Shown: in pieces, positions 46,572 through 55,002 of the stretch | Position numbering within the stretch: the stretch's first letter is position 1 | Layout: every line of letters begins with the position of its first letter | Assembly: GCA_964518475.1 (NCBI GenBank) | Contig: CAZFGR010000001.1 | Coordinates: 128,001 to 192,000 of the forward strand | Length of the DNA: 64,000 nucleotides | Source: an uncultured Nitrososphaerota archaeon | GTDB lineage: Archaea; Asgardarchaeota; Njordarchaeia; Njordarchaeales; Njordarchaeaceae | Direction of reading: 5' to 3' | Notes under the pieces: model-generated | The model's input: only the letters and a program-made list of their open reading frames with translations | Told to the model about the DNA's origin: nothing | Databases searched by the model: none | Made by a program: the position numbers and the translations under genes

Positions 46572-47309
46572 TCATTTTTTCTCTATGCATTCGCGAAAAT
46601 GTTTAAAATTTATCTTCGAAGGCTCAATAATTCTCTCTCTGCATATGATTTCATGAAGCACACTTAAGGCTTTTAATAATCGTTTCATTCTGTTCTTAGT
46701 TCTTTCAAGTAGGTTATTCGCAATGTCTATAATCCTATATAAGTATTCTTTTTCGACTAATAATCCATTAAATTTCGTAGCTACAGGCAAATACATTTTT
46801 TCAGTACTAGTAAAATCCATTATTACGTGCCCTTTATTATGATTGATTGCTCGGATCCCAGAATCCTTAAAACCTAGAAATCTAGCTAATTTAATAAAGA
46901 AAGATGCCCAATCAATACTGCTTACTGCAACAGCTACGATCATACCTTCCAACTTTAGCCACACGATACCTTTTGGTTCGTAATTTTCCAGAATATTCCA
47001 CACAACATCGGGCTTAACTGGTGAGTGCCAACGAGCAACCTTTACACTATCCTTTTTGCTTCCCGTGTAAGGAATATCTATTAGAAGTATTCTTCCAGAA
47101 CACGAAGATGTAGTATATGCAAATGGTAGAAGATTAATCATGTTTAATAAGGGTATAATATCCTCATCTACTTCTCCACGCTCGATAGCTTGCGAGAGTC
47201 TTCTTATGAAAACTTTCTTTCTTTGAATGAACTCTCGCGATATTCTAAAGGTCTCCATACTTACACCAAAAAAGGGAAGAGATAAAAATTCTTTAAGGTT
47301 TTGGAACAA
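46572..47309 (-). CDS. taw3: tRNA wyosine methyltransferase Taw3/TYW3
   Basis: GEVDEDI, YTTSSCSGRI, GFKDSGI. Confidence 0.92.
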   Translation of the reverse strand: MFQNLKEFLSLPFFGVSMETFRISREFIQRKKVFIRRLSQAIERGEVDEDIIPLLNMINLLPFAYTTSSCSGRILLIDIPYTGSKKDSVKVARWHSPVKPDVVWNILENYEPKGIVWLKLEGMIVAVAVSSIDWASFFIKLARFLGFKDSGIRAINHNKGHVIMDFTSTEKMYLPVATKFNGLLVEKEYLYRIIDIANNLLERTKNRMKRLLKALSVLHEIICRERIIEPSKINFKHFRECIEKK

Positions 47310-47405: not shown

Positions 47406-50267
47406 CTATCTTTGCCAAAAAACTCTCGTCCTGAAGTACGCAGCTTCTCTCTTACGCAACTCTCTTATTAGCGCTGATCGATCCTCGGCATATCGTTTTA
47501 AAATCTCTATTGCTTGTTTTGGGCCTATTCCCCTAGTTGCTACTGTTATTGCTGTTAATTCTTTATAGGTTTGTAGGAATCTACTTATTTGCTCAGCTAA
47601 TATCAGCTTTTCAACCTCTTTTGCACTTAGCTTCATTTTCTTTTTAAGCTTATCAATTATCATTGGTAACTCTTTTTCATGTTTCTTTGAAACAACAATT
47701 CTCGTTGAATCACACCGCGGACATTTAAGAAGAACATCTGAAACTGGTCTAATCTCTTTATAACCACATGATAAGCAAAGATAGAGAACTTCTTTTCTTA
47801 AGAGCCTCTCCTCATATTTTCTGATGACTAGTTTATCTAGGTCCCTAACAATCACCTGTGGCGTTACTGGTAGGGCCATACCGAGAGGTGAGAGACCACG
47901 TACAAACCAAATATTTATTTGCCCCTCATCAATTTTAAGGAGCATTTCTCTCGTGTGTTTGAGATCTAGATTGTAAAAAATATACTCATGAACAGCCTCT
48001 GCAAAAACCGGTGTGTCAATGTACTCACTTAGTATTCTCGCTAATTTCGTTTTAGATAAGTAAGTCTCGCTTTTTACGAGCCCAAACCGTTTCAAAACTT
48101 GAAGAAAATACCACATTACCTCGTTAAGCTTATTTTCTCTGACTATCTCTATCAGAAATTTCTTCAACGATGTTAGATCCCTAGCATAGTCTATTAAGGT
48201 ATTGAACGCTTCTTCTAAAGCTGTTATAAGAAAATCCTCGCGTAAGTAGAATGTTCGGTAAAGAAAGAATTGAATACGATAAGCGTCACTGTCAAACTCG
48301 GTCATGGGAAAGTTAGGATTCTCGGATAATAATGCAGCTAATAAAATAGCGAGTGTCCTATTTATGTTCGTACCGAAAGGAGAATGAATAATTACTATTC
48401 CCTTAATTTCGTCGATCTCTACTACAATGTTTTTATCGTCCGGAATCGGTCGATCCTTCGGATAACTTTCAGCAATTCCTTTTAACCATTTTTTAGCAAC
48501 GGGAGAGAAGTAACTCTCTTTCAAAGTCTCTTCAAAATTTATCCTCCAAGTTTTTCTGATCTTACCAACTTCTTGCGCCACCTCAAACGAGACAGGAAGG
48601 AGCTCCCCTGTCCACTTAGGCGGAACGGCTTCAATATTGGCAGGAGAGACGAAAACAGCTTTTTTCTCAGCATTAATCTCAAGTACTTCTCTAGGAATAC
48701 CAGCTAAAAGGAAGTGATCTCCTACTTCAGTTTCCAATACGAATTTCTCATCTACTTCTCCAATCTTTCTTCCTTCCTCAATATCAATGACGTCATATTT
48801 CAAAACGGAGGGGATTGTTGAAACATTCTCAAAATAATAACTTAATGCACCTTTTCTGAGAATTATCCGTCCTCGCTCTCTAATAATTAACCTACAGCGT
48901 TGTTCTAAGAAGTTTAGTACCCATTTGAAATCTTCTATTGAAAGCTCTCTAAATGGGTATGCTCTTTTTATTACCTGGTAAACCTCCGATTCTCTCGGAT
49001 AAACTCCTCGATCTAAATATTTTTCCCGTACAATTCCGATTATCTGATGAGCCAGCACGTCATAACTTACGTCTATTACTTTTAAAGGCTCTAATATCCC
49101 CTTCTTGATTAGTCTAGCAATAGCCAACGATTCATATAGATCATCAATTGTCGAAGCTATTATAACTCCCCGAGTTATTAACGATATTCTATGACCAGAT
49201 CGCCCTATTCGCTGAAGCGCTGTCTCAACACGTCGCGGACTCATTACCTGAATTACTAATCCTATCTCTCCAATATCTATTCCAAGCTCCAACGAGGATG
49301 TAGCTATGACACATTTGAGATTTCCTTCTCTGAAATCTCGTTCAATTCCCACTCTTAATTCTCTACTTAGAGAGCTATGATGAATAGCAAAAGGGAAGCG
49401 TGCATATTTCTTCATATAAAGCCCAAGTAGTTCTGCTAGATCTCTTGTATTTGTGAAAACCAGTACCTTACCCCTTTCTTTATCTACGTACTCAACAATT
49501 TTTCGAGCTATCTCGGCCACATTGACTCTTATTCCGAGACCGAAAATATTGGGCGCAGGGGATAACTCTGGTTTTACAGCATCTATTTTCAAATGAATTT
49601 TTTTATATTCCTTTGTTTCAATTATTTTTCCGCCTCTACCTCCCGTGATAAACTCCAATACTTCTCGAGGATTTTGTACAGTCGCGCTGAGGGCGATTAT
49701 TGATAGATCCCGTTGTGCTAATTCCCTCAGTCTCTCTAAACCCACAGCTAATTGGCAACCTCTCTTATTATCAACAAGAGCATGTACTTCATCTATTATA
49801 ACCCAGCGAACATTTTTCAGATATGATCTAATTCTCTTTCCACATAGAATAGATTGGAAAGATTCTGGTGTTGTGATAAGAATTTGAGGAGGTTTTTTTG
49901 CCTGCCTACTTTTCGCTGACTTGGGAGTATCGCTGTGTCTGACTTCAATAGTTATGCCTAAGGCATTTCCGATCTCAACTAATCTCTTGAAAATATCCCT
50001 ATTAAGCGATCGGAGAGGAGTTATGTAAAGTACTAAGATTCCCTTCTCTTTTATCCCTTCCTTACTCAGTAGTATGTGTAAGATAGGAAAAATTGCAGCT
50101 TCGGTCTTTCCAGCGCCAGTGGGGGCGATGAGTAGAAAATTGCCTCGAGGATTCCTAAGTATCTCTGGTATTGCTAATTCTTGTATTTTTGTCGGTTTTT
50201 TGTATCCAAATTTTCTTAGTATACTTTTCAACCTCTCGTCTAACAAGTCAAATACTTGCCTCTCCAC
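47406..50267 (-). CDS. lhr: Lhr-family SF2 helicase
   Basis: APTGAGKT, ITTPES, DEVH, LSATV, HHSSL, SLELGID, QRIGRSGH, C-terminal Zn finger. Confidence 0.94.
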   Translation of the reverse strand: MERQVFDLLDERLKSILRKFGYKKPTKIQELAIPEILRNPRGNFLLIAPTGAGKTEAAIFPILHILLSKEGIKEKGILVLYITPLRSLNRDIFKRLVEIGNALGITIEVRHSDTPKSAKSRQAKKPPQILITTPESFQSILCGKRIRSYLKNVRWVIIDEVHALVDNKRGCQLAVGLERLRELAQRDLSIIALSATVQNPREVLEFITGGRGGKIIETKEYKKIHLKIDAVKPELSPAPNIFGLGIRVNVAEIARKIVEYVDKERGKVLVFTNTRDLAELLGLYMKKYARFPFAIHHSSLSRELRVGIERDFREGNLKCVIATSSLELGIDIGEIGLVIQVMSPRRVETALQRIGRSGHRISLITRGVIIASTIDDLYESLAIARLIKKGILEPLKVIDVSYDVLAHQIIGIVREKYLDRGVYPRESEVYQVIKRAYPFRELSIEDFKWVLNFLEQRCRLIIRERGRIILRKGALSYYFENVSTIPSVLKYDVIDIEEGRKIGEVDEKFVLETEVGDHFLLAGIPREVLEINAEKKAVFVSPANIEAVPPKWTGELLPVSFEVAQEVGKIRKTWRINFEETLKESYFSPVAKKWLKGIAESYPKDRPIPDDKNIVVEIDEIKGIVIIHSPFGTNINRTLAILLAALLSENPNFPMTEFDSDAYRIQFFLYRTFYLREDFLITALEEAFNTLIDYARDLTSLKKFLIEIVRENKLNEVMWYFLQVLKRFGLVKSETYLSKTKLARILSEYIDTPVFAEAVHEYIFYNLDLKHTREMLLKIDEGQINIWFVRGLSPLGMALPVTPQVIVRDLDKLVIRKYEERLLRKEVLYLCLSCGYKEIRPVSDVLLKCPRCDSTRIVVSKKHEKELPMIIDKLKKKMKLSAKEVEKLILAEQISRFLQTYKELTAITVATRGIGPKQAIEILKRYAEDRSALIRELRKREAAYFRTRVFWQR

Positions 50268-50692
50268 TATTTTGCCTCCTCATAGATTTCCTGCAGAAGC
50301 GCTTCTGCAAAATTTCCTAACGTATTTATTAGAACCTTATCACTCAGAATACTTTGCACTATTCTCTTTATTCTCTCTGGCGACTCTCTAAGCACGTCCT
50401 CTACAACATCTCTTTCATCGAAAGGCAATAAGTTGAGACATTCTCTACTTAATTTATAAATCTCCAAAAAGCTCTGTAATATGATTTCCTTCTTCCCCTC
50501 TCTACAAGCTTCCGACAGTTTACTAAGCATATATCTTAGTTTAAGCATGTATTCTGGAGGGATCCGTTCATCATCAAGAACACTTTCTAAGACAAAAGAT
50601 ATAGCGTCTAGAAGTTCTAAGAAAAGTTGTTGAGTTTTTCTCAATATATCTTCCCTCCTGAGCCTCTGGGGAGAACTCAGAGCTGGTGCCAT
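50267..50692 (-). CDS. Hypothetical alpha-helical protein coupled to lhr
   Basis: 141-aa ORF whose stop overlaps the lhr start; its 5' end overlaps a C/D sRNA, so the start is uncertain. Confidence 0.55.
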   Translation of the reverse strand: MAPALSSPQRLRREDILRKTQQLFLELLDAISFVLESVLDDERIPPEYMLKLRYMLSKLSEACREGKKEIILQSFLEIYKLSRECLNLLPFDERDVVEDVLRESPERIKRIVQSILSDKVLINTLGNFAEALLQEIYEEAK

Positions 50693-50739
50693 TCTTCATT
50701 TTTCAGTCGAAACACTCCCTCTTCATCGTTCTCTTCCCC
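50668..50739 (-). ncRNA. Box C/D guide sRNA (downstream member of a tandem pair)
   Basis: GAGAAC-G-ATGAAGA-GGGAGTGTTTCGA-CTGA-aaa-ATGAAGA-ATGGCACCAGCT-CTGA-GTTCTC, with terminal stem. Confidence 0.85.
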
Positions 50740-50749
50740 GGCGTTGGAT

Positions 50750-50806
50750 CGTCAGGCGGCCCATCAGCTCATCACGAAATCAGTAGCGCTGGGATTCATC
50801 ATCTTG
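50750..50806 (-). ncRNA. Box C/D guide sRNA (upstream member of a tandem pair)
   Basis: ATGATGA-ATCCCAGCGCTA-CTGA-tttc-GTGATGA-GCTGATGGGCCGC-CTGA; D guide antisense to the 16S-like GCGGCCCAUCAG. Confidence 0.9.
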
Positions 50807-50886
50807 TTACTGCTGGATAACAAAATTAGTACCTGTTCTTAAAAAATAAGTTGGTTTATTCTGTAAGGGACCAAATCATAATTCAG

Positions 50887-51438
50887 TTAGTGATATATAA
50901 TAAAATCTTTTTTCTTAAAATTGCTTTTACCCGCCACCGCTAAGAAAACCATGAAAGCCTGTAAAAAATGCGCAATTCCCGCTTTTCCTTTGAAATTAAA
51001 CCACCACGCTCTAAAAACCGGTGGCATACAAAAAGGTTTATAATTAGTCCACTTTCGAAGCATCATTATGAATTCTCTATCCCATCTAGGATCTCCTATT
51101 GTGGGAGGATGTTTAGGATAACTTATTGGGACGTTTATTGTTACTGTTAACCAGTATTCTCGTCCCATATTAAAGAGTTCACCAACATTAACATCTACAA
51201 GGAATCTTTGCGGATTATTCTTTGCGATACGGAGATTCTTGAAAGGTACATTAGCATTGAATAATCTCCATGTTTCGAATACTCTAATTTCTTCCTTGAC
51301 TCTGTCGAGCCATTTATTTGTACGTGGAGAAGCTATTATTTGAAGCGATGGGATATCTGTATAGAAATTCCACACGAGAGGAATACCACGAGCTTTTTTC
51401 TGCCTTAAGACGATCTTTAGAGACGGGAGGTCTTTCAA
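50887..51438 (-). CDS. UFC1-like (Ufm1-conjugating) E2 enzyme
   Basis: [42 protein letters not shown]...GIAHFL...FLAV, collinear with UFC1 motifs. Confidence 0.8.
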   Translation of the reverse strand: [183 protein letters not shown]

Positions 51439-51818
51439 CGTCTAACTCCTTCTTTTAATGTACTGAAATCTATACTTCCCCTTATAGCTGGCTTTATTAG
51501 TTTTGCCCCTTTTTTGAAACATAAATCACAGTGTTCTTCATTATTCTCGTTAACAACTTCAAAATCGTTCCACACATTTTTCTTACCCCGTTCATTTAAA
51601 CATTCATCACAGACCCAGATGCCTCTCTCTATAGGTATAACGACAAAAGATGCTTCACTTTCACAAATATCACACTGCACCATATCCTCACTTTCGACTT
51701 TTAGAATAAAGCTATCTTTCAGCGCGCCTCTGAGAGTAAGCAGGATTAAACAATCTGGACATACATATGTTTTATCAGAAATTCTCTCTCCAGAATTAAT
51801 GGTTATTTCATTAAGCAT
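51435..51818 (-). CDS. Zn-finger repeat protein (4 CxxC)
   Basis: CPDC, CDIC, CDEC, CDLC; 4-nt overlap with the UFC1-like gene. Confidence 0.75.
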   Translation of the reverse strand: MLNEITINSGERISDKTYVCPDCLILLTLRGALKDSFILKVESEDMVQCDICESEASFVVIPIERGIWVCDECLNERGKKNVWNDFEVVNENNEEHCDLCFKKGAKLIKPAIRGSIDFSTLKEGVRR

Positions 51819-51937
51819 TTAGTTTCCCTCAGTATATTTCATGTTTTAATAAACTCTTGCCACATGAATCTTTAGGAGACGCATTTTATTTAAATTACTT
51901 TTGGATTAAAAATCAGCCAGTCTCTGGGTGATAGTAT

Positions 51938-52051: not shown

Positions 52052-52243
52052 AACCATTTTTTAAGCACTCAAATCGTTATCTTATATCTTGCTATTTTCT
52101 AAATTTCTTGTTCTGAAAATGTGCCTACTTCATCAATTATTAATTATCTTTAAAACCGTTAATCATTAAAAGTATTTTAACTCAGTTTGATTTTAAGAAA
52201 GATCCTTATTAAAGATCATTGCTTAGCTACTGAGAGGATCACA

Positions 52244-54115
52244 ATGTCATTGCAAGGTATATTAAAGGGTATTCTTAGAAAAGAAGAAAGCTTTGAGCGA
52301 AGATGTAAGTATCTTGAACGTCTTCTCGATGCTGACATAAAGCAACTTGAAACAAATATTCTTGGTATAACAAAAACTATTGAACTAATAGAGTACAGAG
52401 TACGAGCAGGAGATGTTCAGGAAAAGGTAGTTCTAGTAGAATTTCTAAGAGTATTAAGCGAAGTCTCTGTGCGATCACAAAGATTAAGCTCGGTGGTATT
52501 GGATTTCCTCATTAGTCGTTTGAAAAAATTGGCTGATTTTCTAATAGCAGATGACTACTTATTATCAAACTATATTGCTGCTCTTCGAATTCCTCTAAAA
52601 AATGAGACTTGGCGAGTTTTTGAGTTAATTGATACTTTAAGAGGTATCGTGCTCACAGACAGATTTGAGGAATCTAGAAAAGCTGTTTTAAGAACTTTAA
52701 ATGATATAGCCTGGAACCTCCCTTACATAATAAGTGATTTTAAAGATGCACTCCCGAAACTGCTCAAAGAATCGCCACCAGATATAAAATCGCTTACTAT
52801 TCATTTTATAGCCCGTATCCTTTCCAGAAATCTCTATGCAACAAAATCTCTCATAACAGAGCTTCTAGCCAGTGATCTAAGCCTTATTTCGGAGATACTA
52901 GACGTAGCCACGTACTTGCCTATTCCTCTTCAACACAAAGAAATTGCTGAATCCTTCTTTAATGTAATCTATGAGAGATATTTAGTTTCCTCTGAACCGA
53001 GTGAACAGATGAAATTGCTTAGGGAACTCTCTAAGATCATTAGAATTAATCCCTTCCCAGATCTTCAAAATAAGTTTCTAGAAATCGCTCTTGATAAACT
53101 ACTTAAAGGAGGAGCCGAAAATCTTGACATTAAGGCGAATTTATTAGAAATTTTATCGTCAATATCTTGGCATCCAGAGGTTCGTATTGATAAATTAGTT
53201 GATACATTAATTAATGCTCTTCACAATCCATTAGAAAGAGAAGAGATCCGAGGAAAAGTTATAGAAGCTTTAATGAAGACGATCATTCGTTATCCTCAAT
53301 TCATTTCAGAAGCGTATTCTGCCCTGCTAGATGCTTACGAGTTATGCTCATCCGCAGAGAATAAAACACGTTTAATAAAGAGTTTACAAGCATTGCTTAA
53401 CCTTGTCCGTGACAGAGCTCTTGCATTAAGAACTACGACATTATTGCTTAACATCATGCAGGATGTAGGGGAAGAAGAAAGTGTTAGGGTTAATGCTTCT
53501 GAGTTATTAACAGAACTATCAAAACGTTTTCCAGACATTATAGCAGAGTTGAGTTCTAATATTCTGTCTATTTTCAATTCATTAAACGAATGGGATTTAA
53601 GGGATTCCCTCGTAAGAATTGCTGGAGAAGCTGTAAAGAAAGGATTTTCGGATGAATATTTAGTGGACATTCTGGTAAATGCTCTTAGTGATGAGTGGAT
53701 CTATAGTACTGCTCTTGATTATCTAGTCGTCTTGGCTTATAACAAACCTGAAAGCCTACTCGAAAAAATATCGAAACTAAGAAAATTCTTAGAAGTGATT
53801 AGTTCTGTGGAAAAGGAAATCCTTGAAGAGGAAAATATGGAGGCTTACTATTACCATATTGAAACACCCAAGCGTATTTTCTATAGAATTCTGCGAGAAA
53901 TAGTAACAAGAACTAAACAAGCACTAGAGGAGATTCTAGAAATATTGATTATCGGGTCAAAAGAAGAAACTAATGAGATAATTATTAGAGATATTGCTCA
54001 GACAATAAAAGATATCATCGAAATCGATGAAGAATTCAAAGAAAAACTTAATTTGAATGAGTTAAATCCCCTTCTACTAGATACACTTAAACAGTTCGGT
54101 TTAAATATAAGTTAA
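52244..54115 (+). CDS. HEAT/ARM-like alpha-solenoid protein
   Basis: Repeats such as EEIRGKVIEALMKT, ESVRVNASELLTEL, WDLRDSLVRIAGE; start set at MSLQG. Confidence 0.75.
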   Translation: MSLQGILKGILRKEESFERRCKYLERLLDADIKQLETNILGITKTIELIEYRVRAGDVQEKVVLVEFLRVLSEVSVRSQRLSSVVLDFLISRLKKLADFLIADDYLLSNYIAALRIPLKNETWRVFELIDTLRGIVLTDRFEESRKAVLRTLNDIAWNLPYIISDFKDALPKLLKESPPDIKSLTIHFIARILSRNLYATKSLITELLASDLSLISEILDVATYLPIPLQHKEIAESFFNVIYERYLVSSEPSEQMKLLRELSKIIRINPFPDLQNKFLEIALDKLLKGGAENLDIKANLLEILSSISWHPEVRIDKLVDTLINALHNPLEREEIRGKVIEALMKTIIRYPQFISEAYSALLDAYELCSSAENKTRLIKSLQALLNLVRDRALALRTTTLLLNIMQDVGEEESVRVNASELLTELSKRFPDIIAELSSNILSIFNSLNEWDLRDSLVRIAGEAVKKGFSDEYLVDILVNALSDEWIYSTALDYLVVLAYNKPESLLEKISKLRKFLEVISSVEKEILEEENMEAYYYHIETPKRIFYRILREIVTRTKQALEEILEILIIGSKEETNEIIIRDIAQTIKDIIEIDEEFKEKLNLNELNPLLLDTLKQFGLNIS

Positions 54116-54159: not shown

Positions 54160-55002
54160 ATGATAAGAGCCGTAGCAATATATGATGCGTTAGATAATCA
54201 GATATTTTATACAGACTTTGCACAATATGCACTAAACCTTTCATTTATAACAAACTCATTATTCGAAATGAAGGAACTTATCAGTAAGCAGTTAGAAGAT
54301 ATCACTATAAGCAGATATCGCGTAGGCGCATTATTTGAGCCCGATTATACAATAGTAGTATTAGCCGATAGAACTAATAGGAAGGAAGAATTAGAAGAAT
54401 TTACTCTGAATCTAAACATACTTGTAAAGAAGATATTTGGGGAGGATATTTCGAGCGAAAGCTTTCAAGATGAAGAAAAAGTTGATAAATTCTCTGATGA
54501 ATTAGAGAAACTCGTTGGTAAAATACCTGTTAAGATAACCTTTGTAGGATCTGGTGGTGTTGGAAAAACTACTATGGTAAGACTACTAGCGAGAGGAATA
54601 ATAACGTCCGAGTACACACCAACAATTTTTGCAGATGTCGAACATATAGACGTTCTTATCCCACCATTCACGATATCTCTTTTCACAGTAGCTGGACAGG
54701 AAAGATATAGAAAAACATGGGATATTGTCTCTGAAGCCACAGATATCGTAGTACTCGTACTTGACAGCACGAAAAGTAATCTAAAAGAAACAAGAGAAGT
54801 TATTTATCCAAAGATCCGCCAACTAGCTCCCTATGCACGATATGTGGCTATTGCAAATAAACAGGACTTACCTGAAGCATTGCCGCCAGCGATTATTGAA
54901 GAGGAAATAGGACTACCCACCTATGGAATGATCGCGATAAGAGAAGACGCTCGAGAAAGGTTATCAACAATTATTAAACAGATATTAACCACGATTCCTT
55001 AA
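54160..55002 (+). CDS. Longin-like domain fused to a small GTPase
   Basis: N-terminal MIRAVAIYD...; GSGGVGKTT, YTPTI, TVAGQERY, NKQDL. Confidence 0.85.
   Translation: MIRAVAIYDALDNQIFYTDFAQYALNLSFITNSLFEMKELISKQLEDITISRYRVGALFEPDYTIVVLADRTNRKEELEEFTLNLNILVKKIFGEDISSESFQDEEKVDKFSDELEKLVGKIPVKITFVGSGGVGKTTMVRLLARGIITSEYTPTIFADVEHIDVLIPPFTISLFTVAGQERYRKTWDIVSEATDIVVLVLDSTKSNLKETREVIYPKIRQLAPYARYVAIANKQDLPEALPPAIIEEEIGLPTYGMIAIREDARERLSTIIKQILTTIP

Follow-up and report, generated by a model that had tools for sequence, protein, structure and literature searches.

On the reverse strand of a 64,000-nucleotide stretch of a Njordarchaeia genome (2.33 Mb, 91% complete), here called the window, two small overlapping genes encode a cysteine-rich protein and, directly downstream, a protein that the initial annotation had read as an archaeal UFC1-like E2. 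UFC1 is the carrier enzyme (E2) of the eukaryotic UFM1 protein-tagging pathway. Picchianti et al. (2023) surveyed UFC1 and UFM1 and placed both in eukaryotes only (PMC10183829), and a search of the searchable full-text literature for UFC1 together with Asgard returned only this paper, which denies an archaeal UFC1. A 2026 structural survey reported Ufm1 homologues in Asgard archaea, its main text being devoid of UBA5 and of the ufmylation enzymes (PMC12962969). The novelty here is an unlinked, class-wide and long-branched subfamily of UFC1-like E2s, together with its predicted zinc-binding partner.

The gene pair and its surroundings

The stop codon of the partner gene and the start codon of the E2 gene share four nucleotides (Table 1), an overlap that suggests translational coupling of the two, and a 60%-identical relative carries ATGA at the same junction. 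The T6 run downstream of the E2 gene is likely to end a two-gene transcript, by analogy with archaeal oligo-T termination. Upstream of the partner, a candidate TATA-box-like element, TTTAAATA, is conserved in a relative, with the block CAAAA.T..T.TAAATAAAA common to loci L009 and L017.

Table 1. Features of the E2 locus and related genes elsewhere in the genome. Positions refer to the window unless preceded by a contig.
Feature	Position	Strand	Description	Basis
UFC1-like E2 gene	50887..51438	-	183 aa, start TTG, stop TAA; E2 core, sole invariant Cys in PFC[MI]P	Pfam, PDB, AF2, Foldseek
Cys137 codon	51028..51030	-	TGT; predicted thioester-forming active-site Cys	
TAK-equivalent F123-I124-M125	51064..51072	-	aligned with UFC1 T106-A107-K108	HMMER alignment
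Partner gene	51435..51818	-	127 aa; four invariant CxxC pairs, Cys 20/23, 49/52, 70/73, 97/100	
TTGA overlap	51435..51438	-	partner TGA stop over E2 TTG start	
T6 run	50841..50846	-	41 nt past E2 stop	sequence read
Candidate TATA-box-like element	51887..51894	-	about 69 nt upstream of partner ATG	
Candidate C/D-box sRNA	50751-50806	-	downstream of E2	Rfam sR5, 34.9 bits, E 1.3e-6, below gathering score 40
Weaker C/D-box sRNA candidate	50675-50730	-	overlaps start of a 141-aa ORF	sR14, 22.4 bits
Helical-repeat protein gene	52187-54115	+	642 aa	weak HEAT/ARM-like Pfam matches
GTPase gene	54160-55002	+	280 aa; N-terminal extension, Arf/Ras/Roc-type GTPase domain	Arf 60 bits
Lhr-type helicase gene	47406-50267	-	953 aa; overlaps end of the 141-aa helical ORF	
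TYW3 methyltransferase gene	46572-47309	-	follows the Lhr gene	Pfam 137 bits
Operon E2 gene	C1:24208-24735		inside a proUbl-E2-E1-JAMM operon	
Third UFC1-like gene	C1:73790-74413 (L007:4791-5414)	+	207 aa; start overlaps end of an upstream 337-aa gene	Pfam UFC1 32.4 bits; PDB matches UFC1 only
Homologue of the f4 ~250-aa protein	G000:C1:84160-84954 (L069:3661-4455)	-	unlinked	E 1e-15 to 1e-17

Across the relatives of the partner (110-127 aa), all eight cysteines of the four CxxC pairs are invariant. By inspection, the protein repeats one C-x2-C-L...C-D-[IL]-C module in tandem through internal duplication, and it is predicted to bind two zinc ions. It is rare, with only 16 protein clusters in 5.8 billion sequences, and its nearest Pfam family, DUF4428, stays close to threshold (27.1 vs 27.8 bits). 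Its AlphaFold2 (AF2) model (pLDDT 79) has no PDB match: Foldseek reached no E-value better than 0.2 and VIA-align wide a best Z of 3.0; no known E3 fold was matched by either program, and an Atlas feature search returned unnamed clusters only. A predicted complex of the E2 and the zinc partner scored 0.00, below the mark, a result that counts neither for nor against binding.

Beyond the pair, the genes for the helical-repeat protein and the GTPase are divergent from it, and this adjacency is kept in family f1 of the class and in a 42%-identical MAG labelled 'Korarchaeota', not in family f4. On the other side, the order of the Lhr and TYW3 genes is the same in the relative L009. We rejected the solenoid, the longin-GTPase, the Lhr helicase and the 141-aa helical gene as core parts of the system, since their adjacency is confined to f1 and does not extend to f4.

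A UFC1-type E2 fold with an invariant cysteine

Pfam matched a single family in the E2 protein, UFC1 (PF08694), at E 4.4e-7 and 30.1 bits (curated gathering cut-off 25), the alignment spanning profile positions 6-134 of 155 (129 positions), while the orthologues score 20-30 bits against the same profile. The same search gave no match to the canonical UBC family (PF00179) at E <= 1 and no RWD or UEV match (protein P0001), and the sequence holds no HPN motif. Searched with phmmer against all PDB chains, the protein retrieved 26 sequences, all of them human or Leishmania UFC1 (best E 4.4e-6), and a profile of eight orthologues reached UFC1 at E 4.5e-9, with the nearest non-UFC1 chain at E 0.04. 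Among these PDB entries the mutant structures T106I/L/V and K108M of UFC1 score highest, because the residues of the E2 differ at the TAK positions described below. The AF2 model, built with 13 homologues, has a mean pLDDT of 83.6, exceeding 90 for residues 30-170. Foldseek against the PDB placed UFC1 at all of ranks 1-29 (E 1e-5 to 1e-3, TM 0.55-0.67, identity 21-24%), and the canonical E2s in the list followed at E > 6e-3 and TM 0.25-0.41, the first of them at TM 0.28.

Cys137, the only cysteine of the protein, falls on UFC1 Cys116 in the phmmer alignment as well as in that of the family profile. It is invariant in 12/12 orthologues, which share 35-60% identity and keep the context T131...P-F-C-x-P throughout, and the cysteine of this column is kept in 31/31 archaeal UFC1-like sequences aligned. 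By profile, fold and aligned catalytic residue, the product of the gene is thus a genuine UFC1-type E2-fold protein. The initial annotation had proposed such a protein with its catalytic cysteine kept, and it fared well on these points: UFC1 came first by profile and by AlphaFold and Foldseek, generic UBC, RWD, UEV or unrelated folds were nowhere ahead of it, the cysteine falls on the UFC1 site by sequence alignment, and the four peptide stretches quoted in support all occur in the translation, where HMMER pairs them with the human UFC1 stretches given beside them.

The alternative that the likeness to UFC1 is convergent or due to chance, or that the gene is a eukaryotic contaminant, draws on the low identity to eukaryotic UFC1 and on a Pfam score just 5 bits over the cut-off. 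It is effectively refuted, since three independent methods (Pfam, PDB sequence search and Foldseek) picked UFC1 alone, the GC content of the gene (0.37) is close to that of the window (0.38), and its synteny with archaeal Lhr, TYW3 and L7Ae genes is kept in other Njordarchaeota MAGs.

Compared with eukaryotic UFC1 (PF08694; PDB 2Z6O, 3EVX, 7NW1), the archaeal protein has the same Pfam family, fold and Cys column, displays the motifs YP..PP and G-[IL]-A-H-[FL]-[LM], and shares the lack of a canonical HPN. It differs by a longer loop before the cysteine, a proline two positions beyond this residue, an N-terminal W-N-F segment that is conserved, the obligate pairing with a small zinc protein, and the replacement of TAK by F-x-x and of E149 by alanine. 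With canonical UBC E2s (PF00179; the Caldiarchaeum/Asgard ubiquitin-operon E2s) it has in common the general E2 alpha/beta core and a catalytic cysteine, but it has neither their Pfam signature nor their HPN, and no ubiquitin-family or RING genes lie nearby.

The TAK positions deserve closer attention. In human UFC1, T106 and K108 of this motif, propped by W145 and E149, constitute the oxyanion hole for transfer to a substrate lysine, and the mutants T106I/V and K108M/R are charged normally but show no trans transfer; a second, backbone-based oxyanion hole permits cis-modification (PMC12032130). In the archaeal subfamily, F123 is invariant in the 12 orthologues, whereas the second and third TAK positions, including the K108 column, vary. 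The position of W145 is occupied by F165 here and by tryptophan in the orthologues of families f2 and f4, and that of E149 by A169 here and by A, T, V, F or S across orthologues. TAK occurs in 0/31 of the archaeal UFC1-like sequences aligned, operon-encoded and Helarchaeota proteins included, although all 31 keep the Cys column, YP..PP and G-I-x-H-[FWY]-L. Its absence is therefore a general archaeal trait and not a defect of this gene. The earlier claim that TAK is replaced stands, with F123, I124 and M125 in its place; the replacement is not peculiar to this protein, as every archaeal UFC1-like sequence in the alignment lacks TAK.

The loss of the trans-transfer residues, with T106 replaced by F, K108 by M and E149 by A, would also suit a non-catalytic, UEV/RWD-like pseudo-E2 that forms no thioester and serves as a scaffold for the zinc protein. 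Pseudo-E2s (UEV proteins) typically lose the catalytic cysteine. Here, on the contrary, that residue is invariant, sits in the UFC1 active-site column and lies within a PFC.P motif; the protein has no RWD or UEV match, and TAK is also missing from the archaeal E2s encoded in operons. We consider a pseudo-E2 quite unlikely.

Distribution of the subfamily and its candidate E1 and Ubl

The class was sampled through 14 GTDB species genomes of Njordarchaeia, all MAGs that are 66-91% complete, and in 12 of them the E2 subfamily is represented by a single strong match (E 1e-45 to 1e-84). Strong matches among 301 sampled genomes of the phylum were confined to Njordarchaeia. Close homologues form only five clusters among 5.8 billion proteins, with eight representatives in a 1.8-billion library, and their named records belong to Njordarchaeota MAGs or to MAGs labelled Korarchaeota, Crenarchaeota or Nitrososphaerota. 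A profile of the partner found it in the same 12/14 genomes, always directly upstream of the E2 gene and on the same strand, on all contigs examined, and in many cases overlapping it by 4 nt. The profile search returned archaeal proteins only, mostly from Helarchaeota, and in a maximum-likelihood tree of archaeal sequences the subfamily forms a clade with 100/100 support, its internal branching tracking the families of the class. The gene is thus real and vertically inherited. The very long stem of the clade (2.45 changes per site) hints at an altered function and speaks for the pseudo-E2, as does the distance of the gene from any E1 or Ubl gene.

In other genomes of the phylum, several UFC1-like E2 matches crowd into a few kb of a single contig (G239:C36:4904-8666, G296:C204:1628-4669, G071:C46:8984-12117), and this clustering suggests that other lineages have E2 paralogues in tandem.

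The genome itself encodes three UFC1-like paralogues: the window E2, an E2 located within a proUbl-E2-E1-JAMM operon, and a third one found only in this genome and in its closest relative, G007. The third paralogue has a sub-threshold RWD match (16.7 bits) that is missing from the window E2. The operon E2 is homologous to the window E2 (phmmer E 1.6e-8 within the genome); the operon-encoded E2s as a group resemble it in the Cys column, in having no TAK and in a C-terminal GIAH. They nevertheless form a separate, strongly supported clade. The window E2 is linked to a zinc protein instead of E1, Ubl and protease genes, its subfamily extends to families of the class from which the operon type is absent, and it has the higher Pfam UFC1 score, the operon copy having no Pfam match.

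Two UBA5-like E1s and one MoeB/ThiF-type protein were found in the genome. The non-operon E1 (255 aa) has UBA5 as its best PDB match (E 3e-26), ahead of ThiF (1e-15) and MoeB (1e-13). UBA5-like E1s are a feature shared with the eukaryotic UFM1 system, although the E1 of this genome is devoid of the long C-terminal tail. The genome also has two genes for Ubl-like proteins of about 100 aa: the first, adjoining Sec61beta, is Gly-ended, and the second, in the operon, ends in Gly-Asp-Asp-Phe. The E1 and Ubl genes lie 80-105 kb from the E2 on the same contig, in agreement with the earlier remark that the window contains no E1 or modifier gene. Neither Ubl candidate matches Pfam Ufm1 (PF03671), their PDB searches gave insignificant matches to ubiquitin only, and an Atlas search of the Ubl yielded only sub-0.9 leads, to ubiquitin and Rad60-SLD; it is thus from the E1 and the E2, and not from the modifier, that the term UFM1-type is taken.

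Across the 91%-complete genome, Pfam searches found no Ufm1, no UFL1, DDRGK1 or UFSP/C78 (PF09743, PF09756, PF07910), and no canonical UBC E2 (UQ_con) or ubiquitin-family gene. These negatives are weak, because the first-look filter of the same search missed the third UFC1 paralogue. The system thus differs from the eukaryotic one in that UFL1, DDRGK1 and UFSP were not found and in a modifier that is not demonstrably UFM1 by sequence. The initial annotation had inferred a UFM1-like pathway or its precursor and had suggested looking for UFM1/Ubl, UBA5/ThiF and UFSP homologues in the genome. This view is supported by the two UBA5-like E1s and the two small Ubl-like genes with glycine at or near the C terminus, with the qualifications just given for the modifier and for UFL1, DDRGK1 and UFSP. 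As the E2 has no TAK, and UFL1, DDRGK1 and UFSP were not found in its system, we regard the protein as a UFC1-like paralogue with a probable E2 function, and not as an orthologue of UFC1.

Family f4 is the most informative about which E1 and Ubl the E2 might work with. In its five genomes, the window-type E2 is the only UFC1-like E2, and each genome has one UBA5-like E1, falling outside the well-supported clade of operon-type E1s, and one Ubl, which shares 46-48% identity with the Ubl next to Sec61beta in the present genome. This Ubl adjoins a gene with a JAMM-like HSHP...S..D motif and a weak Prok-JAB match. The operon-type E1 and E2 are restricted to families f1 and f2, whereas the distributions of the E2 subfamily, of the non-operon E1 and of the Sec61beta-type Ubl agree across f1, f2 and f4; in G002, a reduced genome, E2, partner, Ubl and E1 are missing together. 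Since it is the only E2 in f4 beside one E1, one Ubl and one JAMM-like protease, the E2 is probably the cognate E2 of a dispersed Ubl system that would be the core system of the class, the operon being a second one. Its place as sole E2 of an otherwise complete E1/Ubl/JAMM set also argues against a pseudo-E2. We infer this assignment from phyletic patterns in incomplete MAGs (66-91%), and co-occurrence is weak evidence in this case because the genes for E2, E1 and Ubl lie apart from one another and each is near-universal in the class.

The C-termini of the orthologous Ubls of two f4 genomes differ, ending ...AEMLG in L065:1880-2221 and ...AEMLGITGST in L064:1957-2277, so that the first is ready-made and the second needs trimming; both orthologues adjoin the JAMM-like gene. 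Adjacency to Sec61beta was considered as a clue to the target and rejected, as it holds in this genome while the f4 Ubl adjoins the JAMM-like gene instead. Directly 3' of the E2, f4-type genomes encode a protein of about 250 aa (L021:8520-9272, L023:8564-9310, L022:2475-3221, L019:2023-2787, L020:2575-3336) with no Pfam or PDB match, in which Cys13, Cys98 (E-C-[FL]), His177, Asp90 and Asn169 are invariant, a set that could be a thiol-enzyme signature. This protein, which has a homologue in the present genome (Table 1), may also belong to the system.

In ubiquitin systems, E2 families often share one E1. An active E2 could accordingly be a redundant or alternative carrier for the JAMM-E1-E2-proUbl operon system, alone or along with the dispersed one, and would then not be dedicated to the dispersed E1/Ubl pair; the count of three UFC1-like paralogues against two UBA5-like E1s and two Ubls in the genome would fit such sharing. 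We regard this as improbable, given that the operon already has its own E2, that f4 keeps the window subfamily without operon-type E1 and E2, and that the subfamily is co-distributed with the non-operon E1 and the Sec61beta-type Ubl. Some cross-talk of the E2 with the operon system may occur, since the operon brings its own E2.

A proposed conjugation route

The explanation towards which we lean, with moderate confidence, is that Cys137 would be charged by the dispersed UBA5-like E1/Ubl pair and that transfer would be aided by the zinc partner. It builds on the family, the fold, the conserved cysteine, the gene pairing and the phyletic pattern as observed above; we infer the charging, the choice of E1 and Ubl and the role of the partner. 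The UBA5-like E1 would adenylate the C-terminal glycine of the Ubl and hand the Ubl to Cys137 as a thioester, the likeliest pair being the 103-aa Gly-terminal Ubl beside Sec61beta and the 255-aa E1 at C1 46963-48516, after which the E2 would transfer the Ubl to its targets. The E2 and the small, putatively two-zinc protein would be made from one two-gene transcript, and the co-translated zinc protein may bind the E2 as a specificity factor, either an E3-like adaptor or a first substrate, and direct or assist its discharge. As the positions of T106, K108 and E149 are hydrophobic or variable here, discharge is probably partner-dependent or relies on another chemistry.

A broader reading, which we put forward tentatively and hold to be rather doubtful, is that the zinc protein and the E2 could be a self-contained conjugation module with a new, small zinc-dependent E3 or adaptor, within an ancestral, class-wide archaeal UFM1-type pathway devoid of TAK, UFL1/DDRGK1 and UFSP.

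The class-wide conservation of an archaeal UFC1-family E2 supports an archaeal origin for the E2 of the UFM1 cascade and adds to the evidence that a 'eukaryote-only' type of E2 has archaeal roots. The case is a notable one, with a TAK oxyanion motif that was lost or never acquired, an obligate partner of predicted two-zinc type, and a role as sole E2 in some genomes. With just four small thermophile proteins (E2, E1, Ubl and zinc protein), the set could be reconstituted in vitro, which would open to study the discharge of a UFC1-type E2 that has neither TAK nor UFL1. If the module reading is true, UFC1-type E2s would be archaeal in origin, and their first discharge mechanism and ligase partner would have been unlike those of eukaryotes.
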